Below are positions 1 to 47,680 of a DNA stretch of 64,000 bases, in pieces. This DNA comes from Alloascoidea hylecoeti (Eukaryota). Every line of letters starts with the position of its first letter. Position 1 is the first letter of the stretch. The translations under genes and the position numbers were made by a program. Location: positions 62,001-126,000 of the forward strand of contig BCKZ01000015.1 in NCBI GenBank assembly GCA_001600815.1. Direction: 5' to 3'. The notes below the pieces were generated by a model that made no database searches, was not told the origin of the DNA, and was given only the letters and a program-made list of their open reading frames with translations.

Positions 1-85
1 ATCGATATATAATTATAAGGGTGTGCTAGTATATATAAGTCCTAAATTATCGATTTTCTTTTCAGTAATTATAACTACATTAATC

Positions 86-925
86 ATGAATTCAGACTTA
101 GAACCAGGATCTCTGGCTAGCTCTAGATCTAGTAATGGTTCAAAACAACAGCAACTCCAACAAGTAGAGAATACTGGTGATCTTGGTTTGACTCATATTA
201 AAACAGAAGGCCCCGACAATGAGTTTATTTATCTTGGAAATCATAAATACCGAAGAGAAGAGTTGGCTCATGCTTTTGGTGGGACTTTGGTTCCTGGAAT
301 ACAAGAGAAATCTGCCTATCAATTTGGTAACTCGGTTCCTTTGGGCCTTTGTGCTTATTCAATTTCTGCGATTGTCCTTTGTTTGGTTAATGTCAATGCT
401 AGATCTGTATCAACACCAAATATAATGGTTGGTCTAGGGTTTTTCTATTCAGGTGTTGTAATGTTTTCATGTGCCATGTGGCAATTTGCTTGCAATAATA
501 CTTTTGGTGCAACTGTTCTTGGATCATTTTGTGGTTTTTGGTTATCTTATTCAGCTATTTTAACCCCTGCTTTCGGAATACAAGATGCTTATGAAACAAC
601 AGAAGAGTTCAATAATGCTCTTGGCTTTTACTTATTATGCTGGACTTTTTTTGTATTTATGATAACTTTAACAACTTTGAAATCTACTTGGGTTTTCTTT
701 ATATTTTTCATCTTTGTTGACTTATTATTCTTACTATTAACCATATCTGCTTTTATTGGAAGCTTAAAAGTGCAAAAAGCTGCTGGGGTTTTCGGTATTT
801 TATCTGGATTTTTAGGCTTCTATATTGCATATGCTGGAATTGCAGATCCACAGAATTCATATTTTGTTCCTCATCCGATTGGTATGCCAGATGGTGATCG
901 GATTTTGTTTTCTAGGAAACATTAA
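86..925 (+). CDS. ADY2: GPR1/FUN34/YaaH (AceTr) family acetate/ammonia transporter
   Basis: First ATG at 86 (ORF track starts at GTG 23). AFGGTL motif, NSVPLGL variant of NPAPLGL, NTFGAT..GFW, about 6 hydrophobic helices. ADY2 vs ATO2 orthology unresolved. Confidence 0.85.
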   Translation: MNSDLEPGSLASSRSSNGSKQQQLQQVENTGDLGLTHIKTEGPDNEFIYLGNHKYRREELAHAFGGTLVPGIQEKSAYQFGNSVPLGLCAYSISAIVLCLVNVNARSVSTPNIMVGLGFFYSGVVMFSCAMWQFACNNTFGATVLGSFCGFWLSYSAILTPAFGIQDAYETTEEFNNALGFYLLCWTFFVFMITLTTLKSTWVFFIFFIFVDLLFLLLTISAFIGSLKVQKAAGVFGILSGFLGFYIAYAGIADPQNSYFVPHPIGMPDGDRILFSRKH

Positions 926-23562: not shown

Positions 23563-25982
23563 ATGGCCTCTGTCGCGTCTGCCTCGGGTGTAGAAAAGCG
23601 TGCTCCCAGAAACAGAAAGAACAAGAAGGAACAGTCTCCAGAACCTGTCAAAGAATCTGTCAAGGAACCTCCTGTGGAATTGTCTGAACCATCTCCAGCA
23701 ACACCAGAAGAGGATACACCTGTTAAAGAATCAAAAGTATGTTATTTCCTGAAACTTGTCATTTGTGAGTTCCTCTGCTTTTCTTTGCAATTGGGTCACT
23801 AATGTATTTTTTTATGTTCTATAGTGGTTGAAAGTTGAGGCCATTGTTGCTCCAATCGTTTTTACAGTGGTTGCTATTTTTACACGTCTATACCGCATCG
23901 GCATCAGTGACCTCGTCACTTGGGATGAAGCCCAGTAAGTAATCATTTTTGGAGATATTCATATGAATATTCATATAGCCATGTTACTGACACTTGCCTT
24001 CTTTTAGTTTTGGTAAATTTGGATCCTACTATCTGAAACATGAATTTTATCACGATGTTCATCCACCTCTTGGTAAAATGTTAGTAGGTCTTTCCGGTTA
24101 TTTGGCTGGTTATAACGGTTCTTTTTCTTTCGAATCTGGACAGCATTATCCTCCAGAAGTTGATTATGTTAAGATGAGAATGTTCAATGCTATGTTCAAC
24201 TTCTTATGTGTTCCTGCTGCTTATTTCACTGCAAAAGAATTACACTTATCCCTCCCCGCAGTTTGGCTTTTAACTTTATGCGTATTGTTTGAAAATTCTT
24301 ATGTTACTTTAGGTAGACTTATTCTATTGGATTCAATGCTATTGTTATTCACTGTTACAACTTTTTTTGCCTTTGTTAAATTTCATAATCATCAAGATCG
24401 TCCATTTTCACGTAAATGGTGGAAATGGTTATTATTAACCGGTATTTCAATTGGTTGTGTTACAAGTGTTAAAATGGTTGGTTTATTTATTACTTCTTTG
24501 GTTGGTCTTTATACTGCTATTGATCTTTGGAATAAATTCGCTGACAAGTCTATTTCAATTAAAACTTATATTGCTCATTGGGTATCAAGAATTTTTGGTT
24601 TGATTGTTGTTCCTATTTTCATATTTGCTTTATGTTTTAAAGTTCATTTTGATTTATTATATCACTCTGGTCCTGGAGATGCCACAATGAATTCATTGTT
24701 TCAAGCAAACTTGGTTGGTTCAGATATCACTAGCGGTGCTAGAGATGTTGTGTTTGGTTCTGTTGTTACTATTAAAAATCAAGCTTCTGGCACTGGTTTA
24801 TTACATTCTCATGTTCAAACATACCCAGATGGATCTAAACAAAATCAAGTCACTACTTATGGTCATAAGGATTCAAACAATCAATGGATCTTTGAACATG
24901 AAAGAGGTGTTGATTTCTACACTGTTAATGAACCACTTACTCCAATTTCCGATAAAGCAGTTGTTCGATTTACTCATCAAAACACTGGTAGAAATTTACA
25001 TACTCATGACATTGCTGCCCCAGTTTCAAAAGCTGAACAGGAAGTTAGTGGTTACGGTAATTTAACAATCGGTGATGAAAAAGATAATTGGATTATTGAA
25101 ATTGTTTCAAATATCGGTGATGAAGATTCATCTATTTTACATCCTTTAACATCTGCTTTTAGAATTAAATCTGCTGTTTATAATTGTTATCTTGCAACCT
25201 CAGGATCTCAACTACCTCAATGGGGTTTCAGACAAGGTGAAGTTGTATGTAAAAAAAATCCATTCAAACGTGATAAATCAACGTGGTGGAATATTGAATT
25301 ACATGAAAATGATAGGTTAGAAGCAGGAGAAATTAAATTACCAAAAACTTCTTTCATCAAAGATTTTATTGAATTAAATTTAGCAATGATGATGACAAAT
25401 AATGCTTTAGTCCCAGATCCTGAAAAGCAAGATGATTTAGCTTCTGCATTTTGGCAATGGCCAACATTAAATGTTGGTATTAGACTTTGTGGTTGGAGTG
25501 ATGAAAATGTAAAATATTTCTTACTTGGTTCACCAGCTGTTACTTGGCTTTCATCTATTTTTTTGATTGTTTTCGTTATTACTACATTAACTTATATTTT
25601 ACGTTGGAAACGACAATATAATGATTTTGCAGATTCACAAAAGTTAGATAAATTCTTAATGGGTGGTGTTTATCCATTTATTGGTTGGGTTTTACATTTC
25701 TTACCATTTGTTATAATGGCAAGAATTACTTATGTTCATCATTATTTACCAGCTTTATATTTTGCAATGATTATTTTTTCATTTACTGTTGATTTTTTCA
25801 CATCTGGTATGGTTTGCACAAAAACTTGTAAAGCTGTTAGATTATCAATTTTTGCAATTTTATACACTTTGATTATTGGAGTATTTGTCTATTTTGCTCC
25901 AATAAGTTTTGGTATGACTGGTCCTGCTAGTCAATATGCTTATCTAAATTGGTTCAGTACGTGGAGAGTTATAGATCCTTAA
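23563..25982 (+). CDS. PMT2: Dolichyl-phosphate-mannose protein O-mannosyltransferase, PMT2 subfamily; 3 exons (23563-23736, 23825-23934, 24008-25982)
   Basis: Introns 23737-23824 and 23935-24007 restore [28 protein letters not shown] repeats (LHSH, LHTH), [22 protein letters not shown]. Confidence 0.93.
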
Positions 25983-26898: not shown

Positions 26899-27870
26899 AT
26901 GTCTACAACTTCAAAACCATCGAAACAGTCGTTTACAAATAAGACATTCAAGGCATACAAATGTTGGTCTTTGTTTAAATTTACTCCTTCAAAGATAGGG
27001 AAATATACAAAAACATTGTCGACGTTATTGGCGCAAAGTTTTGTCGATTCTAGCTCATATCTAACTGGTGTTGCATATAAAGATTCAAATGGAATGCAAA
27101 TAGATGGAGATTGGAAGATGATAAGAGATGCTTTAGATATTAGTTGGACGACTTCCAATATAACGATAAAAAATATGTTGGGAGGTGAAAATGAAAGATA
27201 TTCGGTTCATACCATAAAGGTATCTTTTGGAAATACCCAAAGACAAATAATACATCTCATTACAAAGCCAAGTAATGATAGTAATAGAAATGGAAATGGA
27301 AATGGAAATAAAGATATTAGAAAAAATAGATTTAAAACATTATTGTTATCAAGATGTAATCCACAAATTCAATCGGCTTTTATAAGATGGTTAAGTTTTA
27401 AGTTCGATACGCCAGTGAAACCGATAATCTTCAAATCAGATTTCATAAAGTCCACGCTTGGAGATTACATAAAATCACAAACTTTTTCAGAAACAAATGG
27501 AAACCCCGTTAATGTTGGCAATGTAGGGATTAATTTTTCTGTGGATACACTTGGAAACAATTTACAAACGATAGCATTAGATATCCAAGGTTCTGATATA
27601 ACAAATTTTATAATAGCGGGGGAAAAAGACTTCTTCGTAGGATTTTATGAATATCTTCAAACCTACACGGGTATTGACTTTCATCAATTGAATATGGCAA
27701 GGATTCACTGTAATTGGATTTTCATATCAAATGAAGGAAGATTAAAATTATCAAGCAATCTTGAACTGGGAGTTGAAGAAGAGGAAGGAAATGAAGGTAG
27801 CAACGATAAAAATTATAAGATAACGATATGGCAAATTTTGCATCGGATATATACCTCGTTTGCAAATTAA
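26899..27870 (+). CDS. Kinetochore CENP-L/Fta1 family protein
   Basis: LLLSRCNPQIQSAFIRWLSFKFDTPVKP and C-terminal YLQTYTGIDF..LNMARIHCNWIFISNEGRLKL resemble CENP-L/Fta1 blocks as I recall them; length fits. Confidence 0.65.
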   Translation: MSTTSKPSKQSFTNKTFKAYKCWSLFKFTPSKIGKYTKTLSTLLAQSFVDSSSYLTGVAYKDSNGMQIDGDWKMIRDALDISWTTSNITIKNMLGGENERYSVHTIKVSFGNTQRQIIHLITKPSNDSNRNGNGNGNKDIRKNRFKTLLLSRCNPQIQSAFIRWLSFKFDTPVKPIIFKSDFIKSTLGDYIKSQTFSETNGNPVNVGNVGINFSVDTLGNNLQTIALDIQGSDITNFIIAGEKDFFVGFYEYLQTYTGIDFHQLNMARIHCNWIFISNEGRLKLSSNLELGVEEEEGNEGSNDKNYKITIWQILHRIYTSFAN

Positions 27871-28426: not shown

Positions 28427-31400
28427 ATGAACGAAACCAATTCTTGTGCTCCATGGGTGCTTGACGATTTTTCTACCTGCTTCAGGCAGAGGTAAGTTCC
28501 CCAGCATCTCTACTACATACATCTACATACATATCTTCAAAACTAACAACCATATAAAACTGACAGGTATTTGGAAACCTGTGCCCCCATCTTTATCATT
28601 ACAACAACCACAATCATATTATTTGCTCATCTCTCTGCATATAGAAAAAAGAATAGATCGGTGATCCTTTCTGGTGCTGAAAACGATCAACTTCGATCCG
28701 AAGTACAACAACTGCTTCATCCCGAGGAAGTTGAGGATGAAGATAACGTATCGAAAAGTTCAAAAACGAAAGTAACCGTTCAATCATTCCCTGTATCCTC
28801 CTCTTATGGATCTATTAGCTCTCTAAGAATTGAGGATCCAGATGTTATTAAGTATTCTCATTATGATTTGGCATTTGTGCAAGAAAAGAATAAGATTAAG
28901 CAAACACACGTTGAAGTCTACTACAGATCTACTTACGATCGCGTTGCATTTGCATCGGAGTTGTTTTGGCTCAGCTTACAAACCATCTTCACGGTATTTA
29001 CATATTTCAATAATTATGAAAAGCCTTCCTCTCCTTCGTTACTTGCTCAATTGGTATTATGGACCTTGTTGCTTTCTCTTGGGGCCGCAAGATTAAAATT
29101 TTCAAAAGAAATCGTGTCAGGAAAACTCCCAACTTTCTGGCTCTACTCTGTAATCATCTACGGTGCTTTACTTCCACTATACGCCATCTTATTAAGATCG
29201 AACCTCCTAAGACATACCCCAAAGGGCCTTTATTCATACTACAATGTCACTTTCACTGTTGTTGTCCTTGTTGTTATAGCAACATATACAGTCAATGTTG
29301 GTGATAAACCCAATTTAGTTTTGGTTGATGAAAATGTAATCCCATCTCCAGAAGGAAATTGTTCTTTGTTTTCACTCTTGTCGTTTTCATGGTTCACTCC
29401 TTTATTAAAGCAAGGACACGAGAAATCTTTAACCATAAAAGATGTTTGGGATACCGTTGAAAATGATCAGCCATTCTATATTGGTCTTAAATTTCAAGAA
29501 TTTCACAGAAAATCAAAATTATTATTCAGGTTAGCTAAATTCTTCTATAGTTCTTTATTACTTCAAACTATTCTTTCACTTATTAGTACGGTTTTACAAT
29601 TTTCTCCTGCTGTTCTTTTGAATATATTGCTGAAAAATATTGAAGATCCAACAAGATATCCAACATCAGTCAATTGGTTGTTGATAAGCTTGATGTTTGC
29701 CTCTACCGTTGCTAGTAGTCTAGTTGAAGGTCAATTAAATTTCCTTGGAAGAAGGTTTGCAATGAGATTAAAATCCCTTCTTATCGGTGAAGTTTACTCC
29801 AAATCTTTAAGATTGAAATTACTAAGCAATGAAAAGAATGATGAAAATAGTGAAGAAAAAGATGAAGATGAAATATCTGTTGGTAAAATCATTAACTTGA
29901 TGTCTAATGATACGTTTGAAGTAGGTGAATTGGGAGCAATGATTTTCACCTTCGTTTCATGTCTTTTGAAAGCTCTCATTGCAGTGGTTTTACTATATGG
30001 CTTATTAGGATGGTGTGCTTTTGTTGGCGCTATTTCAATGGTAACCGTAATGCCATTTATATTTTTGCTTTACACTAAAATTAATAAAATCTTTTTTAGT
30101 TATATGGGGATTAGAGATAAAAGACAGGATGCAATTAATGAATTATTAAAGTCTGTCCGTTTAATTAAATTTTTTGCCTGGGAAAGTAAATTTGTTGAAA
30201 AGGTTATGATATTAAGAAACAGAGAAGTTAGGGAATATCAAAAGCTTCTCTTATTATTTGTCCCAACTAACTTCTTAATGCAATTATCTTCTTCTTTAAA
30301 TTCTTTGATTTCATTTGGTTGTTTTGTATTTATTAGCAAGCAAAGGCTGACTATTCCAATTGCTTTTACTTCCTTGTCTTTTTTTTCTTTATTGGAACAA
30401 CCATTAATGCGAATTTCTGGTAATTTATCTGATGTTATGGATGGAAAGGTATCACTTGATCGTCTCACTGGATTTTTTGATCAATTGGAAACCGGTCGTT
30501 TTAGTCAATTGAGTAAAAAAAGGGAAATTGACTCACCATTAGTTGGATTTCAAAATGCTTCTTTAACTTGGAACAAGGAGAAAAACGATGCTTTCAAATT
30601 AAAAAATTTGAATATTGAATTCAAAGAAGGTATGTTGAATCTAATCACTGGTGCAACTGGTAGTGGTAAAACAGCATTATTATTAGGTCTTTTAGGCGAA
30701 TTGGATCTTCTTGAAGGAGGCGTATTTCTACCATGCATTCAACCCGCGGAAATACTCACACCAGATGTAGATGGGTATACTGAATCTGTTGGTTACTGTG
30801 CCCAAACACCCTGGTTAACAAATTCTTCAATTAAAAAAAGTATCTTATTCGGAGCTCCCTATAATGAAAATAGATATAATGCTGTTTTAAAAGCTTGTTC
30901 TTTAACGCGTGATTTGGGAATTTTACCTGATGGTGATGAAACAGAAATAGGTGATAGAGGAATTATTTTATCAGGTGGTCAAAAACAAAGAATTTCACTT
31001 GCCCGTGCAATTTATTCAACTGCTAGATATATTTTATTAGATGATTGTCTTAGTGCTGTTGATTCTAGTACTGCTGTTACGATTTATGAGAATGCAATTT
31101 GTGGTCCTTTAATGAAAAATAGAACAGTCCTGTTGGTATCGCATAATATTTCGTTGACACTGCAGAAGGCAAATTGGGTTGTTATATTGGATAATGGTAA
31201 GGTGAAAGGTCAGGGTATACCATTAGATTTGGTAACACAAGGACTTTTGAGTGCTGACCAAGTTAATAATAATGATCCAGAATCTCAGAAACAAACAACG
31301 GAAAATATTGAATCTTTGGAACATGTGGATGAAGCTGATGGTGATTCTGGATCCAAAGAACCGAAAATAGGTCTTGTTAAGGATGAAGAAAAAAATACAG

Positions 31401-33427
31401 GACGTGTTTCTATAGATGTTTACAAGAATTATATTTTAAGTTACAGATCTTATCATTACGTTGCTGTGGTAGTAGTCTTACTTTTCGCAATTAGAGCCAC
31501 TAATGTTTTGGAGTCCTTTTGGGTTAGGGAATGGGTAACCAATTCTGAAAAAGAACCAAAAGATGTTCTTATCAACGTTAAAAATATTGATAAAACGTTA
31601 AACTCCGTCAGTCATTTAACTTCATCTGCTATCTATTTGGCATGGAGCAGAATTTCTACTTTTGGGTATCATTTAAGTTCTATATTTTATTTGGTACCAG
31701 CTGAATCTGATGAAATGAAAGTTGAAGGGTTTATTCACAATAACCATGGCTCTTTATTTTATCTGTTAATCTACAGTGGAATTGGCATGGCTGGCAGTCT
31801 ATTTGGAGGTTTGAGTATGATGTGCTTATCTTTTGCATCCTTCGACACATCATCATTGTTGTTCAAGCAGTTGTTGGAAAAGATTTTACATGCTAAAATT
31901 CGGTTTTTTGATTCCACACCAATTGGTCGTATCACTAATAGATTTTCTAAGGATGTAGGTGCTCTGGATAATGTTTCCAATACAATGCATACATTTTTAA
32001 GTAGTATCATGTCCTGTATTACAATATTGGTTATGGTTACCTGCATTACCCCTTACTTTCTCGGAGCTGCAATCGTTATCGGTACTGGATACTATTATAT
32101 TGGTTCATTTTTTATGGTCACATCCAGAGAATTAAAAAGAATCTATTCAACTACAAATTCACCTATTTATCAACATTATAGTGAAACTTTAGCTGGTATT
32201 TACACTATTAGAGCGTTTGGCGATGAAAGAAGATTTGTTAGAGATAACTTAGAGAGACTTCATATAAATAACCGAGCTACATTCTATTTGGGTGTTTCTA
32301 ATAGATGGTTATCAATTAGAATTAATTTTCTTGGTGCACTTGTTGTTTTCACTGCTGGTGTATTGGTGGTTATGAATATTAAAGTAATTGATGCTGGTCT
32401 GGCTGGCATTTCAATTACGTATGCTATTGGATTTAGTGATCAAGCTATGATGTTGGTTAATATTATCGCTGGAATGGAGATTTCTATGAATTCGGTTGAA
32501 CGTATCTTTGAATATTTAGGTATAGAACAAGAAGCCGCTTATGAAATTCCAGAAATGAAACCTCAACCATCATGGCCAGAAAAGGGTGAAATTGAAGTAA
32601 CGGATCTTAGTCTAAAATACGATAAGAAATCCCCTCTAGTTATAAAAAATGTTTCTTTCCACGTTAAACCGACTTCTAAAGTAGGTATTGTTGGTCGTAC
32701 TGGTGCTGGTAAATCCACAATCATAACTGCGTTCTTTAGATTCATCGAACCAGAAACTGGCACTATCGTTATTGATGGCCAAGATATTTCGAAGATTGGA
32801 TTGCAAGATTTGAGAAGAGCTATTACCATTATTCCTCAAGACCCTACATTGTTTTCCGGAACTATTCGATCTAATATTGATCCATTTGACGAGTATTCAG
32901 ATGATGCTATTTTCGAAGTCCTCAAAAGAGTGAGTTTAATTGATGAACTTCCCAAGCCCGTTGAGATACTCGTTGATATAGATAATGAGATCCCAGCTAC
33001 ATCCCAAACACCTTTATCGACAGAAAATATTAATCAATTTATGGACCTTAAGAACAAGCTTACTGATGGGGGTGAAAATTTATCACAAGGTCAAAGACAA
33101 TTATTATGTCTTGCAAGATCTCTACTTAAATCTCCTAAGGTCATATTATTAGATGAGGCAACAGCATCGATTGATTATGAAACAGATGCCAAGATACAAA
33201 AGGTCATCAGAACTGAATTTTCCAATAGTACAATTATGACCATTGCTCATAGATTGGCCTCGATTATCGATTATGATATGATTTTGGTTATGGATCAAGG
33301 TGAAGTCGTTGAGTATGAAAATCCTTACACATTGATAACCGATGAGAATTCTCTGTTTAGGAACCTTTGTGAAAAGAGTGGCGAACTTGATAAACTTATC
33401 ACTCTAGCGGAACAAGCACAAGTTTGA
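28427..33427 (+). CDS. YBT1: ABCC/MRP transporter, Ybt1/Vmr1-like; 2 exons (28427-28491, 28567-33427)
   Basis: Intron 28492-28566 (GTAAGT..ACTAAC..CAG) adds N-terminal WVLDDFSTCFRQRYLE. Two NBDs: GATGSGKT/LSGGQKQRI and GRTGAGKS/LSQGQRQL. Paralog identity uncertain. Confidence 0.8.
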
Positions 33428-36400
33428 TTCATTTTTGGATCTTAATATTAATATCTACTCTATACATTAGAACACAGCTTGCTGCGATTTTTTATTTTTT
33501 ATTTTTTATAACCAACTTGATATATACGTGATATTTTTTATTACAGCTATAACTTATTTATAAACCCAATTACTATTGCCTGTTATGTATTACATAGATA
33601 TAAATATATAATTTCTCTTTCAATTTCAGCAATAGTCACGGTGGTGGCAGCCTAATTTGTTTTTACATATGAGCTTTCCCCGGCACCCTATTTTGAACTT
33701 GGCACCAACCACCAACAACATTATAAGATTTTTAAAGATGACACAGCAGCTAGATAAATACTAAAATAGAAAATATAGACCTTTTCCGGGTAGAATACCC
33801 ATTCCGCTACTTTTGAGTTTGGGTATCCGTAAACCCTTTTCTTATAAATAGTGTATGGTTTTCTACTTATAATAAATCATTCCTTTCATTTTATTCTGAC
33901 GAGTTTCAGCCTTTGACTTCTTAACTAGTTATATGTAAATGTGTTCATTTCTAGACTATGCATACCAGTATAAGTTTATTCTTAGTTTTTGTGTGTATGC
34001 AATGTAGGTTATCCACTACCATATAAAGTAACTATGCATATTTGCAGAGCCAAATACGGTGAAATTGAAGATTCGCTGACTGTTCATGAAATTCATGAAT
34101 GAACGGATAAATTAGATGAAAGATTGATACATGTACAGTATTGTAATGCGCATTATAATATGCTACCTATAATATTAAAAAGTTGATTAATCGATCAACT
34201 ATATGATTTGGGAGATATCAATAACGCTCTGATCAGAAATGAAGTCATGTATTTTTCAACATTAACACTATTACAAATTATTTTTTTCAGCTAGCCTATA
34301 CCGGTATATAGTATGTAGTGATACACATGACTTAAATTGATCTCTTCTAGGGCCTATAGAAAATTATCAGGACACCAATACATAACTATCTAGTTATACA
34401 GTTAAATAGTTAGTTAGAAATAAGCTTGAGCTCTGAAGAGATTGTAATTGGGTGGAACACTCTTGTTTGATTATAATTATAAGTAAAGCTTTAATCTTAG
34501 TCGGAATAACTTATAATATATATGATGGGTGGGGTGATATGAGCATGAGAGTAGGGAACTAATAAGGTGTTAAAATTTAAACCCCTAAGCTTTGTAGAAG
34601 ATCTGCACTTTAAACTTATTCATTAGGTCAAGATCATATTTAGAGATATGGTATAGTTCTTTCTTATAGCTATAAAAAACAATTGATCTGAACAACCAAT
34701 CCAAGTTCCCGATTGCAAGCGACATTATATCGAATACAGACTATATAGTTGCGAGTATATCTCTGGTTTGATTGAACTTTAATACTTTTCTTATTTCAGT
34801 AATCTTTCTTTGGTGTTAGCTAGAAATCTATGAAAAGTTCAAGTTTAGATAATCAATATTTGTATAAACATATAAAAATGTGAATATCTTTTCGTTTTAA
34901 ACGTTTAATGCAGTTCCAGTTGATAGATCGATGTATAAAAAGATGGTGTTGTTGAATTGAAGCAAATATTACTTCTATTTTTACATGTATAACTCAATTA
35001 CGAAATAAGTAATTTTCATCGTATGAATAGCATTTTATCTATTTACAATTACTGGGCTTTTCCCAATCCATATATATATGTATATATGATCGTGCATATG
35101 ACATTGTATGGAGTGAGTGCAATGGTCGACACCTCTTATAATTAGACCTGGTTTATGTGACGTTATAGATGGATTATGAAACAACTCATGAAATATTTTA
35201 ATTTTCAATACCAAAGTGGAGATTTCTAATAACTATATTATAGAAATATGGTTCATAACAAAAACGTTGTAATTAATGTCAACAGATCGCAAATATCACG
35301 ACATTCACACATCACAATGTTACAAGCTTCTATTTTTTAAATCGGTAATGGTCACAATTGTACTCTTAATTATATAGCCTACAGTTAAATATAATTATAA
35401 TAGGTTCACTTATTTGAAACTTCTATTTTATCACCCTTTATAATAAATTAATTAATTAACCTTTTGCCGTTAACGTTTACAGAGAATTTATATATCCATA
35501 TTATATAATAGAAGCTCTCTATAATACAAGAAAAATTATAAAGTTAAACTGAGTTTCTCGATACTATCTCGCATAAAGTCAAACAAAGCAAACATTCTAA
35601 TATGTTTCAATTTTCTAAGACCAATTGAAATCCGATATTAATCCGTGACCGTGCGGATAATAATATAAGCTTACTTACCTATTCATTTATGTAATAGCAT
35701 GATTTTGTGAATCTATCTACCGGTTTTATAACATTTAGGTATATTTTGGTACGAACAACGAAGGTCTCGGGATCAATTATAAAAATGGTAGTCATATGCA
35801 CACATGGGTTCCATGATTTAATCATACTAGCTCCACATCATCATATGTATCATATTGATACACATATCATTCATTTCGACTGATTCTTAACATATAATCA
35901 TGGTTTTTAAACTCTGGTAAGTACATGGTTAGTTGTTTGAAGAAGAAATATAACTTATACCTATAAAACTGTGGCCATATATAAGTTAAGGATAGCTGAA
36001 TATTCGTTATAACTTTTACTTATTGATCATATGAACTTGTAGTCAAATTCAAAATATACAATCATAATTATCATACATGTGTATTTATTACGAGATTAAT
36101 TACGTACTTATTAATATTTGGTTCCTACGTACTACGTACTACGATAACATATGGTTTCTATTTTCTTTTAAGGTTTATTTAAATCTCTAATAATAATTAT
36201 AAGCTTCTAATTTTAATTACATTTATTTATTATATATTTTTTAAAAAAGGGAGGAGAAAACAAAATTTGGGTTCCTCTATCTAACATTATATGTAAATAT
36301 TTATACTCGTCGTGTCTTGCAGTTGTGATAAGGACCAACAAATATTAATATTTATTGGTTTAGATCATTAATATAATATCACTTATAGATCAAATTTTGA

Positions 36401-39400
36401 ATATATAGCTAGCGCTATATATAAAATAATAGTAATTAATAGAATTAATGATTAATGAGTTACATGTATAATATTGTATATAGGCTATATAATTGTAAGT
36501 ATATAATTAATTGACTTTTGTGTTATTTAAAGTTAATTCACCAATTGCAATTAATATTGGAATTTAGAACCTCAATATATATATTGCTAGCTTACAGCAA
36601 CAGCACTAACCATCATCAAGTATAATAGTTTTTCATGCAATTAATTGCAAAGTCTATTATACATATGCATTGAAAGTCCATATATTTTCTGGAATTTCTG
36701 CTATTAAACTAGCTAGGATATTATCTTCAAGGGGATCTAGAAGCTTAAGTATATGCAGCTATGCTTCTCTTCAATATTTAATTACAACCACAATTTGTGA
36801 TAGAATTAATCAACATTGATTTAACAGTGAGTTGCAAGATAAATATAGGGACTAGCCATATAAAGTAAAGATATAAGTTTTTATATTCTGTTTTATTGGC
36901 ATTTAGAGCTGTCTAGCTACGGTTATGGGAGTGGTTATAATTATAATTATAAGCTAGCCTACGGTTATAGGTATATAGCGCTATAGCTATAGCTAGCTAT
37001 AGTATTAGATATATTTATATAGTATACTTATATATACATGTATATAGCATAGCTACAAATGGACCTAATCTTGGATAATTTGACGATGTATACATAATTA
37101 TAATTATAATCAATATTATATTATTGTGCAGGTAAACAAGAATTAATAGATACTTCTCTTTATAATTTACGTTAGCCGTTCATAGAGGCAAAATTATTAA
37201 CGTTAAAACCATACTTTTCTCACTACCGCGGTAGTTTATAATATAGGTTAGATTCTTCAACTTATAATATTAGCCTTATATTATAGTTTTGCTATAGTTC
37301 CTATAATATATATTAAGGCCTAATCCATAGAGATCCAATACAAGTGTTAATGGATGATGCGTTCAAATTTATAAGAATAGCTAGGATATTAATATTAATA
37401 TTTATCTTTGCAGTTTAATAGACTTCCATATATTACCCATTAAGTTATATATATTATAGCTATAGCTAGTGCTACCGTAATAGAATCTAATAGAACAATT
37501 ATTAGCGCAATAAGATTTATTCACAGAAAATCTCGCATAAATATATTTATAGATGGAGTAGATAAGGAATCTAAAACATTAAGACTTAGAATAGCAAAAT
37601 TTTTGCATTAACTAAAAGGTGAAAATTTTATAAAAATAATATATATTACTGATATAATATATAAGGGCCTTATAACTACTGTAACTAATTCCGAAACTGT
37701 TAACGTTAACATAGATATATACTATTTTGGTTATATTGATACCCGATTATGGTATGAATCCCGAAATATTATTCTCTTACAATTGCAATTAATTTTAAGC
37801 TTTGCACCATTAATACTATATTACTTCTCTATATCTAAATTTGTGAGCATCATAAATATTTACCAGCTTAGATTTAGCCAATTATAAAATCTCGATTGTG
37901 AACTTATAATTAAGCATAAGCTTGAATATCTAACTCCGCAATTTTTAATTAATTTTTAATCACTGGATTAAATCATTTATAGGCCAATATTATAAGAGGA
38001 AGCTTTTGACAACTAATTTCAGCTAAAGATCGGCTTGTTTATAGCAGTCAATATATATTATATAGTATATACTTATATAATTAAGATTGCCAAAATTAAT
38101 ACGTATTTACCGGATGAAATGAAAAATAAGCTTAAAAATAGATTATGTGAAGTGTACAATCCCAGAAAATGGAAAAATACCGTCATCGGACGGGGAAGTT
38201 TGCTAGCTTTTTTTCTTTTTTTGCTTGATATCAATGAAATTTATACCTAATTGAGCTTAAATCTATATAACTAAATTGTTTTCTGTGGCTTGCAACATGA
38301 GAAAGGTGTTAATGGTATAACTAGGAATATTATTGTCCAATAGTTGGAGTAATATAGAATAATATTTTATATTAATAGTATAATATCTATAACATTGGAA
38401 TTTTATAATAACCATTAATATTAAAAGCCATTACAACAGACATATTTTCTAACTGGTATTATTTTTAGTAATAGATATTGGATCTAGAATCGATGCCTTG
38501 GATATATTATATGCGATGGACCACGCCCGTTTTTTATTTTAGATATTAATATTAATGATAGCTTCAGAGACGTTGTTTATAGCTGTATATATTTCGTAAA
38601 TTAACATGAAAACAAGATTTCTACAGCTAGCTAAATGCATTTATAATTATAAGAATTATACTTTAAATTGTGACATACTAGTATAACATATATTTGTAAG
38701 GATATTTGAATCCACCTTATACAACATATAACATATGTATAGGGCCTGAAAAATATCAGTCAAATCAAAATTTAAACATATAAGAAATCTTAAGTAGTTG
38801 CCCAAAAAATTCACATCTCTTATTTGATAATAAATATTATATGATGTGTAGACAACTCTCCATCAAAAGGGTTAAGATACATTTCATGTCTCATGTCGCA
38901 TAACAGGGTAATAATCAGTATTGGTCATGACAAATAGGCAATGGCCATGTACTATAACCGCAACCCATATGTAGATTCTTGACATGAATCATAAATTGAA
39001 AATATATTGTATGCGTATCAACCATATATTTAAATGTCAATGATTTCAATTTCGACCGATTCAACTTTCTGAATTTTCAAAAAGTCATAATTGGTAACGA
39101 AATCCATTGTTATGTAGAGTGTCTTTATCTAGTAAAGTTTCAGCAGTAAATTGAAGTTATTTGAATTATCAATGGCAATCTTTGATTTATTTATGTTTAT
39201 GGAGTTGTACGATCGGGTTGGACATATTAAATTACAATGATCTCAAGATATATCTAAACTTCGCTTTTAATTCGAATTTTCTATATGAGATATCGATACT
39301 TACGATTTAGAAACACAAAGATAATGCTCCCCAAAGATTAAGAGTAATAGAGTATAGCTACATAAATTTGACCATGGAACTTTAACCAACCTAGCTCGGC

Positions 39401-39536
39401 TAAGTTAAGCTCAACACTACCTTTTGATACATTCTGTGCATCGACGTTAATTATTATATTATAACAGATAAAACATGGTACAAGTTAGGAGCTATTGCAG
39501 TTGGGTCGTTAAACCCTAATACTCGACGATTTACTC

Positions 39537-39591
39537 GTTATGTTATGTTATGTTATGTTACGTTATGTTATGTTATGTTATGTTATGTTAC
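39537..39591. repeat. (GTTAT)n microsatellite, 11 units
   Basis: Direct reading; two units are GTTAC. Confidence 0.95.
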
Positions 39592-41804
39592 AAAAAGTCT
39601 CTCCAACACTTTGATTACTTCTTGTAACATAATAATTCCCGTATCTATAATGCAGGAATCAATTGCAACTACCCCATTTTGGAAAATAAATAGCTCTTAT
39701 TGTATACAATGGATATATAATATTCTATAATTATAAAAGATTACTCTAATGATAGTATTTAACGTATTTGATACTAATTTTTTCTTTAGAGCTAGTCCAG
39801 TTCCTGTGAAGCTAGGATTTTGCTACTGATACAGATGCGCTCTATATTAATTATTATTGTTATTGTAATCGTGTAAATCATAGGTTGATCTTTCCTCGAC
39901 ATATAGAACATTTTTGAGTGAATTTTAATATTATTAGATCGATATACCGATATTTTCATTTATATAATTACAAGAAATTTAAAATAAGCTCTACTACTGC
40001 AGAAATAAGCAAAACGCAATTAAATAATGATATACTACAATATTAATTGGCGATTATGAATAATTTATGATGTCAATTAATTCTGTAAGAGGTTGAGGTT
40101 GGTTTCAAGCATATTGATGAACGTGTCTCATTGAGAATAGATGTACTATACGTAAATGCAATTATATATAAACTTATAGCTAGCTGGGTAGGTTCATTCA
40201 TATTTTATATTGCATGTGCGAGGAAACCCCAAAACAAAATCCAAACAAAAAATATGTTCAAGAATCTAACTTGATGCCAGAAACAGGTTAAAACAATTAT
40301 AATTCATAACTAATAGAAATATATATTAATAATAGCAAAGCAATTACAGGGGGAGCTATCATATTATATATATAATATATATTATTAATAGAACTAAATA
40401 TGAATTTGATGTTCTACCACTCTAATGATCTGGGCCTCCAGGTCAACAGACAAAAAACAAACTTATCCGATTAATATTACAAGAAGGTGTAGGAGTAAAC
40501 TCAAGGCATCTGAAAAGAATGTTTTGACTTCCTAATGTGTGTAGCACGTATATGCTACATTTATATAATATATCCATACCATGGCCATATGGATCACAAA
40601 ATAAGGAGTACTTAATGCAAGAGTAGCGATATATTAAATTATTTCCAGGAGAAGAAAAATAATCATAATTACTTGAGTATTATAATAAATCGTATTTTTT
40701 CTATATTTTTATATAAAGAAGCTTTTACTATTTTAATTCTATTATCCTTAAAGCTGAATCGGGCAACATGTAGATGTTGAAGTTGTTGTCCATAAACTTA
40801 GAAGAGTAAAAAACTCTTGCAATCAATGAGTATACCTGTAAAATAGAAGTGACTTATAATTATCAGATAACCCCAATACAACCCCAACGCCCTGAAAGCA
40901 TTAATATTTCAAACATGCCTTACCCGAAATGGACAAAATAGAAGTTTGATACACGTGAATTAGGAACGCTAACGCTGTGCTCGGTTATATATAATTATAT
41001 TTTTGTTATATAGAATAATTTGTTCTGTTGCGTCTTCTTTTCAAATCTTGACATTTAACTTCACATTGAAGTGATAATTATACATGCTCTCACAATCGAT
41101 ATGATTGTGGTTATTATTTGCTGTATATGAAAAATTCACAAATTCACATTAAAATATGTAATCTTTAAACCAAAATACCAATATTCTTTGCTTTACCTAC
41201 GGAAAAGATTTTTCTTAGAGTTTTCTAGACTGGTAGTAGCAGATATAATTAATATAATAGTAAATGGCATGTAGATAGCTAGCTGAACAAATATTTAATA
41301 TTATGTCCCAGATACAGCATGACCTTCCTCCCGTAAAATACATGGGGATCGCTGCTCTATTTTTTATGCTCTGCAGTTACATAGTTAAAAATTAGCCCAA
41401 TTATAATTCTGCACTATGAAAATAGACGGTTGAAGTCATTATAATATTTTCATTTTAGATTGGCAGTTGGCTTTCGAACATTTTGTTTGCGATCTGCTTT
41501 GTTTTCTATACCCATGAGCAAAAATAGTTATAAGCCGATTGCAAGTAATGTAGTCCTCCACTGGTCTACATTTAAATCTGGAGAAATATATGTATATATA
41601 TTGATCCAAATCCGTCCCTTCTCCAATTTTAATCAAGTTCTTCTTCTCTCTATTTATTGGAAACAATAAGCAATTCTTACTAGTATATATCCTTAGGACA
41701 AATAAGAAAATAATCCCTTAAGATATTTCTTTGTCTACTATCACAACTAATTGGTGCAATTATCAAAACTTTAAATTTACACACAACCTTAAGTTATAAC
41801 TACC

Positions 41805-43427
41805 ATGGTTACACCAAAGAACTTAAACTCTCCACGAGAAATTAGCATTAAGAGTGCGATAGCAGAACTTGAAAAAGGTTTACATGCCAATATTAAAGAT
41901 GCTGCCAGAGCTCATGGAATTCCATATACGACATTATATTTTAGAGTGAAAGGTCGCAAAACAAAAGAACCCAATCATTCTCATCATCAGGAAGAATTAT
42001 TATCACACTCAGAAGAAGTTCTTTTGGTTCGGTATGTTTCGACGTTATCCTCTGGTGGTTATCCATGCACTTTTAGACATCTTTATGAATTAGTAAAGGA
42101 AATTATTGGGAAACGGATAGTAAAAGATGGTTCTTATATGATATCTCCAACCATGTCACAACTTTCAAGTCCTAGAAATTCATATGGAGGCAATGGAGCA
42201 CTTCCACCTACTTACTCGAATGGTTATGGTAATGGGTATAACGTTGCTACTAATGAATATTCTAACAATTATTCCAATAATTATGACTTGGCAGGAGGTT
42301 ACCCGAATTATAATGGAAATAATCAATTCTATTCGAATCCTACAACACTTCCGACTACCAACGGAAGAGCCAATGGTTATGGTTTAGCACCTGCTTTTGA
42401 TGATTTACATATGCATTCTCAACCTCAGGGAAATGTCCTAACAAATGAACTGAGTACTACTTTTTCTGATCCTAATTTAGTACATGTTCATTCACCAAAT
42501 AATTTGAACAATTATAGGATAGTTGATATTAATGACAATGGTCATATTATAAACCATGGCTCAAAAGGCTCATTATTCGAAAAGACTGGACCTACAACTA
42601 TGCCTGATTATAAAACATGTAAAGCATGGCTACAGCGATTCTTGAAAAGACACCCAGAGCTCCCATCAGATTTATGTCAACCAATCGATAAGAATAAAAC
42701 TGGTGCCTATCTAGATACTGCTTTGAAAAGATGGTTCAAAGGGTATGAGAATCTTGTTACCAGATACCAAATAACCCAGGATAATGTTTATAATGTTGAT
42801 GAAACTGGTTTCATATTAGGAGAAACACAAAGACGATGGGCTATTATTGATAGTACGGTAAAAGTTAAACATCACAGAGAGGATATAATTACTGAATTAG
42901 AATGTGTCTGTGGTGATAAAACATTTTTAAACCCTTATATTGTATTCAAAGGTCGATGCATTGATAGGAATTGGTTCCCTTATGATACTGATGAAAGTTG
43001 GCAATTTATCTGTAGTGAGTCTGGCTGGACAAGTAGTCATATATTATATGATTGGTTAGTTAATTCATTTGATAGATCAACAAGAATCAAAGCTGGACAT
43101 AAAACAAGATTATTAATATTTAATGGCCATCCTACTCATATAACAGGCAATTTCTTGGATTTTTGTACCTCACATAATATCGAATTATTAATACTACCAC
43201 CAAGTACATCACAGATTCTACAACCACTGGATCTAACGATATTTGGACCCTTAAAATATAGAATGGCTTATGAAATGGATGAGTTATTGGCACTAGGAAT
43301 ACCCAGGGTTTTGAAACAAGAATGGATAGGTTGTTTAAAGAAAGCAAGAAACTTTGCATTAACGAGAGAAAATATTGAAAACGGTTTCAGAAAAGCAGGT
43401 CTCATACCATTCGCACCGTTCTACTAA
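41805..43427 (+). CDS. pogo/Fot1 transposase-derived protein (psq/CENP-B-type HTH + DDE_1-like domain), probably domesticated
   Basis: IKDAARAHGIPYTTLYFRVKG, LSHSEEVLLVRY, WLQRFLKRHPEL, YNVDETG (D332), SESGWT, LLIFNGHPTH (N440), LQPLDLTIFGPLK (D476), NIENGFRKAGLIPF. Intact 540-aa ORF. Confidence 0.85.
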   Translation: MVTPKNLNSPREISIKSAIAELEKGLHANIKDAARAHGIPYTTLYFRVKGRKTKEPNHSHHQEELLSHSEEVLLVRYVSTLSSGGYPCTFRHLYELVKEIIGKRIVKDGSYMISPTMSQLSSPRNSYGGNGALPPTYSNGYGNGYNVATNEYSNNYSNNYDLAGGYPNYNGNNQFYSNPTTLPTTNGRANGYGLAPAFDDLHMHSQPQGNVLTNELSTTFSDPNLVHVHSPNNLNNYRIVDINDNGHIINHGSKGSLFEKTGPTTMPDYKTCKAWLQRFLKRHPELPSDLCQPIDKNKTGAYLDTALKRWFKGYENLVTRYQITQDNVYNVDETGFILGETQRRWAIIDSTVKVKHHREDIITELECVCGDKTFLNPYIVFKGRCIDRNWFPYDTDESWQFICSESGWTSSHILYDWLVNSFDRSTRIKAGHKTRLLIFNGHPTHITGNFLDFCTSHNIELLILPPSTSQILQPLDLTIFGPLKYRMAYEMDELLALGIPRVLKQEWIGCLKKARNFALTRENIENGFRKAGLIPFAPFY

Positions 43428-44390
43428 GTGGTTTAGTAAATATCTTATTTAATATTATTATGAGTGTTATGCATTATATTTATGATTATAAAATGCTATT
43501 TATATCCGTTTCAACAGATTATAGATACATGTAGTAATAAGCTTAAGGTTTGGAATTGTCAATTTAATTTTTGAAAAAAAACTACTGTTTTAATAATGTT
43601 ATCAGAAACTCGATGTACCTATTTCGCGGTGTTTTTATTATAATATATATTAAAGTTTTTATCCGTTTTTTGTTTTCTCATTTTACCATATATGACGACT
43701 TTCTATATTTTAAATACATAACTAGTTCTAAATAAGATATAAATATATTTATTATAATGTTATCTTCAGAATCAAAGGATCTAGATCTAGATAAGTTTAA
43801 AGTGACAACAAATTAAATTACAATTGCATGGTATCGAATCTATCGATATCTTCAAATTAAATTTGAATCAAGAGAAGTTAACGTTAACTGGATCCAAACG
43901 TTGATTATAAAGTTATTCCACTTGATTTTGGCCATGGATTGACAAATTATTCGATCACACCTTGACTATGCATAATAAATCTTAATAGTCAAGGACTCAT
44001 GGCTCCAAACTGACTTCTAATGGTTGACCTTGACCTAGAAAAATAATCAATTTTCAAATATTCAACTACAAATCTACATATGAGGTTATCTATCAAATAT
44101 ATTCAATTAGGATTTAAATAAAGTCCGATAGGTGTCAGGATTTGGATAATAGAATCAGATTATGTGCACGAATTCAGACATACGAAAGTAAAAATTTTAA
44201 TTAAGATTTTAATTACGGTTTAATTACTTGGCTAATGACAAAATACTTTTTTCTTTGCTATTCATTTAAAAACTTTCTATTTAAAATCTTCATACTATAG
44301 GCAATTCTATAGACCGTATATGGGATCGTATAGTGCATGTTTGAAAGATATGAAAAGGTACATTTAAGCGCTGTCAGCAAGCTTATCATA

Positions 44391-45062
44391 CAGTCATTTC
44401 ACTTAATTTTGGCCATCGATGACTAAATATTCGGCCAGATGATATTAAGCCATTCTGAAAGTTTCAGCGACCTTAGTTTTGACCTAATGTGTGATTTTAA
44501 TTCTACTAAAATTTTTTCTCTATAAGATAATTAATAACTGTCTTATTTTGTATCGAGCTTGTACTTCTCCTAAAAATGAAGTAGATCTGTAGAATTTTAG
44601 GCTTCAAAGGTATTTGAGTTGCCTTTTATATAATTATAGAGGAAAGTTTCTACTTTTTCGTAGCTAAAAAAAATAAGTTATAATATATAAGCAGGATATA
44701 AAAATAACATTTAAGTAGAAACAATATAACAAGCAATTTTTACTAAATTCATAGTACATGTATTTCTTGAAAACCGATAGCCTTATCGAGATTTTCACAC
44801 CACCTATATATACCTCTATTCCTCTCAGAACAATATAAGCATGTAAGGCCTATATATATATAAATTGTGATAGATTAGTTTGTGCTTTAGATTCTGAATC
44901 ATACATTATTAATGTAAAGGTAGGAACTTATCGATATGTGTATATAAGGCTTATAAGCCTTACATGGGTTACCAAACATTAGTGAATCAAGTGGCCGATA
45001 ATTTGTACTCAACATGGCGGAACATTCGTCTATCACACGGCCGAAATTAAATGAAACGACTG
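44391..45062. mobile_element. 672-bp non-autonomous pogo-type MITE (TA flanks, CAGT termini)
   Basis: TA|CAGTCATTTCACTTAATTTTGGCC ... GGCCGAAATTAAATGAAACGACTG|TA; 21/24 inverted match; subterminal TTCGGCCA-type repeats at both ends; no ORF. Confidence 0.8.
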
Positions 45063-46329
45063 TATGTATACCAAGTCACTGAATATGAACAGCTATTTAT
45101 TCTTGGGACCTTTGTTAGCCTCTAGGATATTGTATGCAGCCATACATATTACGACATGAGTTAATATCTGTATAAGGTAATTATGCACTGATTCTACGCA
45201 TACGGACTCTATTTCTTAACTATTTTAATGGGCGCGAAATCTGGATGTCTACATGGTTAACAAAAAAGATGAAACACTTGACAAAAAACTGGAAAAATTA
45301 ATTTGAAAGGAATAGATTCGCATCTGCCAATTATCTGCCTTCTGGCGTCCTTGATATATAAATGAAGTAATTTTAGTGTTGTGGTCATATTTTGAGCGAG
45401 AGGTGATAACTTTGGTTTTTCTTAAAGTTGTTCATTTTCAGTGATGCGCATTGCGCACCATATGTAGCAACAGCACTTGCGCATATCTACAATATTACCA
45501 CGTATCTTTACTGATTATAATGCGTAAAATTTCCTTTAACAATATTAATAACGATCAAGTAAAAATTTTGAATAAACTACAAAGCGCTAATTAAGATTTT
45601 TGGGAAGGGGCAATACACATAATTGAAGCTTAAAATATCTTAGATCCACAATTTTAACTATTGACAAAATTAGAAAACAAAATCGTGATATCATTATTTT
45701 TGTTTAATACTGTATAAGGATGTGCATCAATGGTACGTTACTTGGCAATGATGCATTTCTTGGCCATTGTATCTTCCTTCGCCAAGGGAGAATCAAAAAT
45801 CAAAAACTCTCTAAAAATTCAAAATGAAAATAAAAAAAATATAAACCTATAAAGAATTATACTTTTATAGATTGTCAACTCGATAGCTAGGTAATACAAG
45901 GAGGGATTGCAATGATTGCCGCAACACCAGCTAAATACCATGATGGAATATTCATTATATTTACAGGTAAATTCCTGATCAGGTTGTGATCTGATAAGTG
46001 AGTAAAGTTCTTCCTACATGCTTACCTCCTCCATAAGTTGCCTCATCTTTTCCCACTGACATCACACCCGGTCTAAATTAACTCCAATTTTTTCTTGTGG
46101 GTGGCTGTAAGTGGTGATTCAACTTCCAGGCTCCTTTTATTCTCATCCAGAATGTTTTTCTTATCCTATAGCTTGTAGAGGAGAACGTACGGCTGTGGTG
46201 GGTATATCAACTAGACGTGATATTTTTCTTATTTAAAGACCAATTTTCTTGCTCTTATATAATTATATATCAAGAAAACCTTTTGGAATCTATGTGATTT
46301 CGACTCCCTTAAGTAAAACTCCCGAGTTG

Positions 46330-47210
46330 CTTCATGGGAAGTAAGAAACCTCAAGAACTTGTGATATCTTCAGAAGAGTTCACAAATATATCATATGCCT
46401 CTTTCAGGTAGGCATATCTATTATATTTATACTTGTATGCGATTCATGACCATCCATCTAAGAAGAGCAGAGCATTTTATCATCTTTTTTTTGGGAAGCA
46501 GTTTTTAATATATTTGGTGGTAATATAACCACTTTGAGAGGAAGTAATGAACCATTTTTTACTTCCCCCCATCTCCAATTTCCCTCTCTGGAGGGATCAA
46601 CCAACTGAGAAACAGAGGGACAATCTACCGGAACCAACACTTTCCTAAACCTGTCAACTTTCCCGAGAATACAACTGATCTTAGTTACATTGTGAATGTT
46701 GCATGACTTTTATTTATATTTGTCCTTTTTAAAGAACATGTACGAATGGAGTACCTGAGACGGCTTACAAACAATCTTATCATGTCTATCTAAGAAGGCC
46801 ATGACCCATTGGTCGCCACATATTATTAATGCTCATTTGTTATTGATATCTGTTTCGAATTGCGTAACATTGAATCAACTCGTGTCTGGATACACTCATC
46901 AACATTCATAGATAATAGAGCGATCTATCTACAGTGCAGCCGCGCTTGGTCACTTCCCGAATATGCTCTAATATCTCATCTTTCCGTAAGAGAAAGAAAG
47001 TTTTTGCTGTGTTCTATTAAACTCCTCGAGGATATTATTTAACCTATTCGTTAGGGAACACTCAGGAACGGTGTCTAATGTAATCCTATACCGGATACCC
47101 TATACTTTAGGGTTCAGCTGCGTCAGGTATTGTCTTTTTGAATTAAGGTTATTTCTAGCAAGGAGGTGGTGAGTAGGTGGTAAATTAAACTTTGCCAATA
47201 GCATCGTCTA
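46330..47210 (-). pseudogene. Decayed pogo/Fot1-family transposase
   Basis: Collinear motifs through stops and frameshifts: VPECSLTNRL..QQKLS (~47070-46995), EILEHIREVTKRG, CGDQWVMAFLDRH (46820-46781), NIHNVTKISCILG, WFITSSQSGYIT, LLFLDG/DGHESH (46470-46437, 4-nt GATG duplication), QVLEVSYFP (46361-46334). Boundaries approximate. Confidence 0.7.
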
Positions 47211-47680
47211 ATATTTAAGCTTTAAATTATGTCAAATCCAAGCCTCAAAGTATTACGGCTCCTATGAAAATGATAATCAGGAGGCGTAACTCTTCAAGAC
47301 GCGTGGACGTGTTACGGTTTAAACCTCCAACAAACCAATTGAGTTGTCAGTGGTGTCGTTCGATGTATATCTAAGCCCACAAAGAAACTTTAGAATTAAT
47401 AAGATTTTGGTTCAGCTCACGTAATTAATTATAGTACAACCCGACACGTGCTTCCACGGCTTATTTCTAAATATAAAATAATTAATTTTTTGTCCGTCCT
47501 TCAATTGCTTGTTTCTTTATAATTTTTACCAGCATTTATCTATTTTACTTCCCTTCTCGTTGCCATAACTCTAATCATCTCCTTTGAGCTTATAATAGTC
47601 TTTTCAGACGGTATTTTATTCTTTTAAATTTTTGTTTTTTACACAAACAGGTGCCCTTTTCGTCAACCGAGAACTGTGAG

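Follow-up and report, generated by a model that had tools for sequence, protein, structure and literature searches.

Does the open reading frame (ORF) at positions 41805 to 43427 of a stretch of Alloascoidea hylecoeti DNA belong to a mobile transposon of the pogo type, or has it become a gene of its host? The stretch, referred to here as the window, comprises 64,000 nucleotides read on the forward strand (GenBank assembly GCA_001600815.1, contig BCKZ01000015.1, positions 62,001 to 126,000). The recruitment of pogo transposases as host DNA-binding proteins is well documented, with CENP-B, Abp1/Cbh, Pdc2/Rag3, POGK, POGZ, TIGD and JRK as examples. An earlier sequence-only reading of the window had proposed such a domestication, based on a Fot1-like ORF that was intact, carried Asn in place of the middle catalytic Asp and lacked a flanking pair of terminal inverted repeats (TIRs). 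Our analysis suggests that the protein of this ORF, P0001, is probably a domesticated, noncutting, Fot-derived DNA-binding protein kept as a host gene.

Descent from Fot-type transposases

The ORF, on the + strand, is intact, begins at the first ATG past an upstream stop and encodes 540 amino acids. Pfam DDE_1 (PF03184) matches residues 363 to 528 with an E value of 1.2e-24, while HTH_psq, a helix-turn-helix (HTH) domain, is only marginal (21.3 bits versus a cutoff of 20.4). The Pfam scan of the protein gave no match to a Tc5-type HTH and no added domain besides DDE_1 and HTH_psq. The layout is given below, with predicted local distance difference test (pLDDT) scores taken from the structural model.

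41805..43427 (+): intact ORF of 540 aa with its stop codon; derived from a Fot-type pogo transposase; Pfam DDE_1, E 1.2e-24
41805..41969 (+): residues 1-55, first HTH (psq type), the most conserved part; HTH_psq 21.3 bits, pLDDT 95-98
41970..42134 (+): residues 56-110, N-terminal half of the CENP-B/Tc5-type second HTH; alignable with Fot sequences; helices 68-83 and 90-108, pLDDT ~90
42135..42593 (+): residues 111-263, low-complexity insert, disordered, that Fot transposases lack; holds a conserved island around YRIVDINDNGHIIN; pLDDT <50 over 111-237 and 241-263
42594..42779 (+): residues 264-325, rest of the second HTH, with its recognition helix, then a linker helix; W275, F279 and R282 kept
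42780..43424 (+): residues 326-540, catalytic core (DDE_1) with an RNase H-like fold, the protein stopping directly behind it; 4mdb_A Z 15.2

The sequence-only reading had the protein ending directly after the GFRKAGLIPF motif; the actual C terminus, GFRKAGLIPFAPFY followed by the stop codon, lies 4 residues beyond it. A candidate intron within the ORF (GTATGT at 42032, TACTAAT at 42248) was rejected because splicing would delete conserved HTH residues.

Protein searches spanned 5.8 billion protein clusters in two very large collections. Among 7998 candidates, 63 proteins reached E <= 1e-3: P0001 itself, a single full-length relative of 550 aa (P0003) and 61 relatives of partial coverage. P0003 covers 100% of P0001 at 52% identity by BLASTP, the overall range being 52 to 57%. 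The partial relatives cover 20 to 54% of the query at 24 to 44% identity, and the 49 strongest, all Fot-like transposases, cover 39 to 54%. An exhaustive HMMER search yielded 12244 matches at E <= 1e-3, and among the best 150 listed the only whole-length match was P0001 itself. A search among shorter proteins gave 14 matches at 33 to 49% identity, every one a Fot fragment, so that no split or fragmentary member of the P0001/P0003 family was found there. The named members of the nearest clusters are filamentous fungi (Botrytis, Cladosporium, Hortaea and Drechslerella), and the ESM Atlas matches are generic DDE_1 transposase clusters only. P0001 and P0003 are each on record from one contig only, of 4450 and 5244 bp. 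DNA for P0003 was sought in two metagenome scans, of which one gave 489 pattern matches with none confirmed and the other no match.

In a quick IQ-TREE run (LG+G4, 84 rows), P0001 and P0003 formed a pair with SH-aLRT 100 (stem 1.17, tips 0.22 and 0.26), nested with SH-aLRT 97 within a 40-row Fot-like clade, in a tree that held no named Fot1 or Pot2 reference sequences. The P0001 protein descends from Fot-like transposases: the DDE_1 match, the relatives, the tree nesting and the predicted fold all bear out this part of the earlier proposal.

The same searches bear on whether P0001 could be the local orthologue of Pdc2/Rag3, in which case it would be domesticated but not a separate event. The domain order is indeed the same, with N-terminal HTHs followed by a DDE_1-type core. 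However, a pan-yeast orthologue should have found many full-length yeast relatives and only one was found, the next-best matches are Fot-like transposases whose named sources are filamentous fungi, no named match bears the Pdc2 or Rag3 name, and the pair nests in the Fot-like clade, albeit in a tree without Pdc2 sequences. With Fot-like transposases rather than a pan-yeast protein as the nearest relatives after P0003, Pdc2 orthology appears unlikely on this indirect evidence.

An AlphaFold2 model built on 101 aligned sequences has a mean pLDDT of 74, with both HTH modules and the core confident. Foldseek matched it to the transposase domains of Mos1, Sleeping Beauty and SETMAR (best 3hot_B, E 1.3e-6). 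By VIA-align, the Mos1 catalytic domain 4mdb_A aligned over 186 residues (Z 15.2, rmsd 3.0), and CENP-B(1-129), 1hlv_A, over 108 of 131 residues within model range 8..284 at a middling Z of 6.7 (rmsd 7.9). The family profile also matches this CENP-B DNA-binding domain by sequence (E 1.7e-4); a PDB sequence search with the P0001 protein alone gave 0 matches. Winged-helix/HTH chains align across the insert, over model range 68..291 (e.g., Z 6.2, rmsd 2.1, 62 aligned). In the prediction, the second HTH therefore folds together around the insert. The predicted fold is thus a Mos1-like catalytic core joined to a CENP-B-like double HTH.

Three positions define the catalytic triad.

42798..42800 (+): D332, first catalytic Asp, kept; GAT, in YNVDETG
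43122..43124 (+): N440, replacing the second catalytic Asp; AAT, in LLIFNGHPTH; same Asn in P0003
43230..43232 (+): D476, third catalytic Asp, kept; GAT, in QPLD

The motifs and coordinates that had been read from the sequence, including the AAT codon of N440, were all correct. With 35 residues between N440 and D476, the triad state is DN35D rather than the complete DD35D. The middle column holds D in 207 of 216 aligned relatives. Five have the unusual Asn (P0001, P0003 and three Fot copies), two have a gap, and H and E occur once each.

Derived features and selection on the coding sequence

The Asn at the middle site (LLIYNGHPTH in P0003) is one of several departures common to the two proteins. 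A ~155-residue insert rich in N, S, Q, G and Y splits the second HTH in both, and P0001 and P0003 are the only ones of nine aligned sequences to carry it (in P0001, residues 105 to 262: N 27, G 18, S 16 and Y 13 of 158). In both proteins the C terminus (...GLIPF[AS]PFY) comes directly behind the core, whereas Fot transposases have a tail of ~180 more residues; tblastn found no relic of this C-terminal tail downstream of the ORF. Across 99 Fot sequences, 41 columns are at least 90% conserved. Both proteins keep 33 of these, and the departures common to them are D440N, S444T and H467S.

Small conserved islands, such as YR[IV][VL]DIN.NG, stand inside the insert of both proteins. One of them, NNYRIVDINDNGHIINH (P0001 residues 237 to 253, window positions 42513 to 42563), is conserved with P0003 within the disordered sequence and may be a short linear motif.

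Constraint was judged from four protein-level proxies, P0001 being the one protein with coding DNA in the analysis. Identity between P0001 and P0003 climbs with the conservation of the Fot columns (54/108, 78/115, 43/57, 39/48 and 36/41), from 0.50 in the most variable columns to 0.88 in those at least 90% conserved (Spearman 0.31, p 1e-9). Neutral drift was simulated from the P0001 coding sequence with the local noncoding base composition. At ~53% identity a lineage accumulated a mean of 11.8 stops and 0/2000 ORFs remained open, and at 80% identity 18/2000 single lineages were still open. The chance of the 158-codon insert remaining open is 2e-6, and the longest stop-free frames across the flanking 12.5 kb are 100 and 83 codons.

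These figures also bear on the possibility that P0001 is a functionless relic, an immobilized transposon copy that has not yet decayed. In its favor, the function of P0001 is only inferred and the family is tiny, consisting of two proteins. A relic should nonetheless not show ORFs of 540 and 550 aa open at 52 to 57% identity, when none of the neutral simulations stayed open even in one lineage, nor substitutions that spare the family-conserved columns, and the short stop-free frames of the flanking DNA argue in the same direction. We regard such a relic as very improbable.

Constraint is unevenly distributed. The first HTH (HTH1) is 83% identical between the two proteins (54 columns), against 69% for the core; the second HTH reaches 47% and 60% in its two halves. 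Fot-Fot pairs with 55 to 80% core identity (n = 214) average 42% in the first HTH, and the HTH1/core ratio of P0001 and P0003 was matched in 0/179 Fot-Fot pairs with data, pairs that are not independent of one another. The proxies are concordant and support purifying selection on both proteins since their divergence. The avoidance of conserved columns, the drift simulation and the HTH1 conservation thereby bear out the earlier suggestion that the gene has been kept by selection in a catalytically compromised form.

The inverted repeat and the chromosomal setting

When the upstream flank was aligned locally with the reverse-complemented downstream flank, a degenerate inverted repeat emerged.

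41760..41803: left arm, perhaps a TIR relic; stops 1 nt short of the ATG
43531..43577: right arm, starting 104 nt past the stop codon

The arms, 44 and 47 nt long, share 38 matches over 49 columns with three indels (7 gap positions) and span 1818 bp. The score of 38 was reached by 1/200 shuffles and by 13/3000 real noncoding 400-bp pairs from the window; with 160-bp flanks, a length picked post hoc, 1/3000 pairs reached it. The arms are bordered by CAA (left) and AAA (right), with no TA or TAA target-site duplication, and no clean TIR pair surrounds the ORF, generic scans showing weak AT-rich pairs only. No further copies of the arms were found in the window beyond chance, by gapless patterns that missed even the left arm. 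The claim that no TIR pair flanks the ORF thus stands as regards a clean TIR and a duplication, but it is weakened as a premise by a degenerate repeat lying at the very ends of the ORF. The domestication proposal that used it is supported in part, with Fot descent and selective maintenance in a catalytically compromised state upheld.

The repeat is the first of several points that weigh against domestication. Some of these are what a low-copy Fot-like transposon, still or recently mobile, would leave: the repeat would be its TIR pair, its DN35D core would tolerate the Asn or be complemented in trans, and P0003 would belong to the same element lineage rather than being an orthologue. The repeat brackets the ORF at a score that only 13 of the 3000 noncoding pairs matched, and its arm length and 1818-bp span fit Fot elements, most of which have TIRs of 40 to 60 bp according to a section of PMC7386202. 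The core still matches the family in 33 of the 41 best-conserved columns and has two of the three catalytic Asp residues, D332 and D476, as would also be expected of a protein under continued selection for transposition-related chemistry. Both proteins come from short contigs (4450 and 5244 bp), and no close sister species is visible (best non-self PMT2 match, 64%). P0003 could be either an orthologue from another species or a paralogue in the same genome, and in the latter case gene conversion could have inflated the HTH1 identity. The support as a whole consists of sequence comparison and a structural model, and the copy count covers the 64-kb window.

Against mobility, P0001 and P0003 both have Asn where 207/216 relatives have the metal-binding D, the repeat ends show no TA/TAA duplication, the window holds one copy by tblastn and each protein is known from one contig, and the searches of the two large protein collections yielded no more members or fragments. 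Transposase DNA-binding domains normally drift along with their TIRs, whereas the first HTH is conserved here far beyond the mobile relatives (0/179 pairs). Codon usage, finally, is fully host-like (relative synonymous codon usage, r 0.94; each neighboring gene versus the rest, 0.76 to 0.95; G+C at third codon positions, 0.23). A mobile element is, on this evidence, an unlikely explanation.

The arms pose a further difficulty for domestication. If real and neutral, they seem more similar than an insertion predating the divergence of P0001 and P0003 would allow; the repeat would therefore be due to chance, or be kept by selection, or P0003 would not be an orthologue. The second option invites a reading that we consider rather improbable: that the repeat has been selectively kept, with a noncutting DN35D protein binding or pairing its own former transposon ends for self-regulation or DNA looping. 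If true, this would be a transposon frozen in place and bound by its own disabled transposase. A bolder version would have Asn at the second catalytic site still permit some chemistry.

The surroundings of the ORF are those of a chromosome. The window has a G+C content of 32% and carries ordinary yeast chromosomal genes, several of them interrupted by introns: Fun34, an SRPK-type kinase, an MFS transporter, a histone deacetylase, spermidine synthase, PMT2, CENP-L, an ABC transporter, a KTR-type mannosyltransferase, a GST, a RhoGAP and a DnaJ-TPR protein. In a search with PMT2, the named match ranking first was from Ascoidea rubescens, at 64%, with the other listed budding yeasts at 58 to 63%; as no PMT2 relative exceeds 64% in that search, the host branches deeply among the budding yeasts and no close relative of it shows up there. 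Two CTG codons fall at conserved Leu positions (L133 of the kinase, compared with Sky1, and L475 of P0001, in a 97%-Leu column), making the standard reading of CTG likely. Sampled words of the window were present at 0.99 to 1.00 in four sequencing runs from three studies, three of them from a single organism and the fourth from a wood-decay metagenome, all four being possible sources of the DNA; no RNA run is among the four, and they say nothing about expression.

The P0001 gene stands alone within ~14 kb free of other long ORFs, between the genes of the ABC transporter and the KTR-type mannosyltransferase. Other gaps in the window measure 0.9 to 3.5 kb, and the upstream one exceeds them about three- to fivefold.

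33428..41804: 8.4-kb upstream stretch without long ORF; G+C 28.3%; 27 stop-to-stop frames, no Pfam match above cutoff
43428..47587: 4.2-kb downstream stretch without long ORF; G+C 32.4%

No transposon relics were detected in this flanking DNA (0/40 frames above the Pfam cutoff, with two subthreshold chance matches), nor any tRNA or Rfam match. The idea that the ORF-free region is a centromere was rejected, since its G+C contents of 28.3% and 32.4% lie within the 27 to 34% of the other gaps and it has no repeat architecture. A scan for inverted and tandem repeats found one structure in the region, a (GTTAT)n microsatellite of 10.8 copies at 39537 to 39590. Downstream of the ORF, a motif of 28 to 36 nt (…CATTTCACTTAATTTTGGCC…) occurs at 43904 to 43939 and 44385 to 44420 as direct copies, 83% alike and 481 nt apart, and a third time in inverted orientation, 89% complementary, at 45039 to 45066.

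Among the neighbors, a CENP-L (Iml3-type) kinetochore gene lies at 26899 to 27870 (+), 14 kb upstream of P0001, probably by coincidence. Genes at 17026 to 18466 (-), 24078 to 25982 (+) and 28547 to 33427 (+) appear to be split, with introns or upstream exons: the histone deacetylase occupies two ORFs, PMT2 lacks its N terminus and the open frame of the ABC transporter starts well before its first ATG. With neighboring genes split or preceded by upstream exons, the host seems intron-richer than model yeasts.

Comparison with known pogo-derived proteins

Relative to Fot and Fot-like transposases such as Fot1 and Pot2, P0001 has the same DDE_1 core, 35-residue spacing and psq plus CENP-B/Tc5-type HTHs, nests with them in the tree and has a degenerate flanking repeat whose arm length and span fit the family as described in part of PMC7386202. 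It differs from them in the middle Asn and the changed signature positions H467 and S444, in the ~155-residue insert within the second HTH and the absence of the ~180-residue C-terminal tail, and in the missing TA/TAA duplication, the single copy in the window and the unusually conserved first HTH.

Vertebrate POGK, of Passer-type pogo origin, offers a counterpart to the triad: Table 1 of PMC7386202, among the domesticated pogo genes it lists, gives POGK as DN35D, with the DDE_1 domain kept. It belongs to another pogo family and host kingdom and has a KRAB domain where P0001 has a low-complexity insert. As marks of a domesticated transposase gene, PMC7386202 uses a Ka/Ks below 1 and stationary orthologues in synteny that lack TIRs and target-site duplications. 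CENP-B and the fission yeast proteins Abp1, Cbh1 and Cbh2 likewise derive from pogo and use an N-terminal double HTH to bind DNA, P0001 resembling CENP-B in the model and the profile. Their origins lie in other pogo lineages, and PMC2134285 and PMC5391189 describe their catalytic residues as more degenerate. Pdc2 of Saccharomyces cerevisiae and Rag3 of Kluyveromyces lactis, budding-yeast transcription factors related to pogo transposase according to a passage in PMC2134285, represent an outcome of the same kind as that proposed for P0001. They differ in forming a pan-yeast family, versus one full-length relative of P0001, in a comparison made by description and not by sequence. A screen of 1237 fungal genomes, as summarized in part of PMC10799480, found domains derived from transposable elements to be frequent in budding-yeast proteins, which makes the case of P0001 less surprising. 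We found no description of the P0001/P0003 gene family in open-access literature text.

Under the domestication that we favor, a Fot-type pogo transposase would have ceased transposition while selection kept the gene for the host. The two N-terminal HTH modules and the RNase H-like core fold have been retained with the second metal-binding Asp changed to Asn, a disordered N/G/S/Y-rich segment has been gained in the loop of the second HTH, and the C-terminal tail has been lost, each of these changes being common to P0001 and P0003. P0001 would then act without cutting, as a sequence-specific DNA binder, i.e., a transcription regulator or chromatin protein. Its highly conserved first HTH would read DNA and, by analogy, the disordered segment may be an activation or interaction region and the dead core a scaffold where pairing or the binding of partners takes place, on the pattern of CENP-B, Abp1/Cbh, Pdc2/Rag3 and POGK.

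If true, this would add to the known recruitments a lineage-restricted case of Fot ancestry, in a budding yeast that branches deeply. Its distinguishing features would be a DN35D state as in vertebrate POGK, a long disordered segment within a CENP-B-type HTH whose domain is still predicted to fold around it, and an end repeat that has possibly been retained. With parts frozen, lost and added, the gene would provide a small and tractable test case of how a transposase is rewired.

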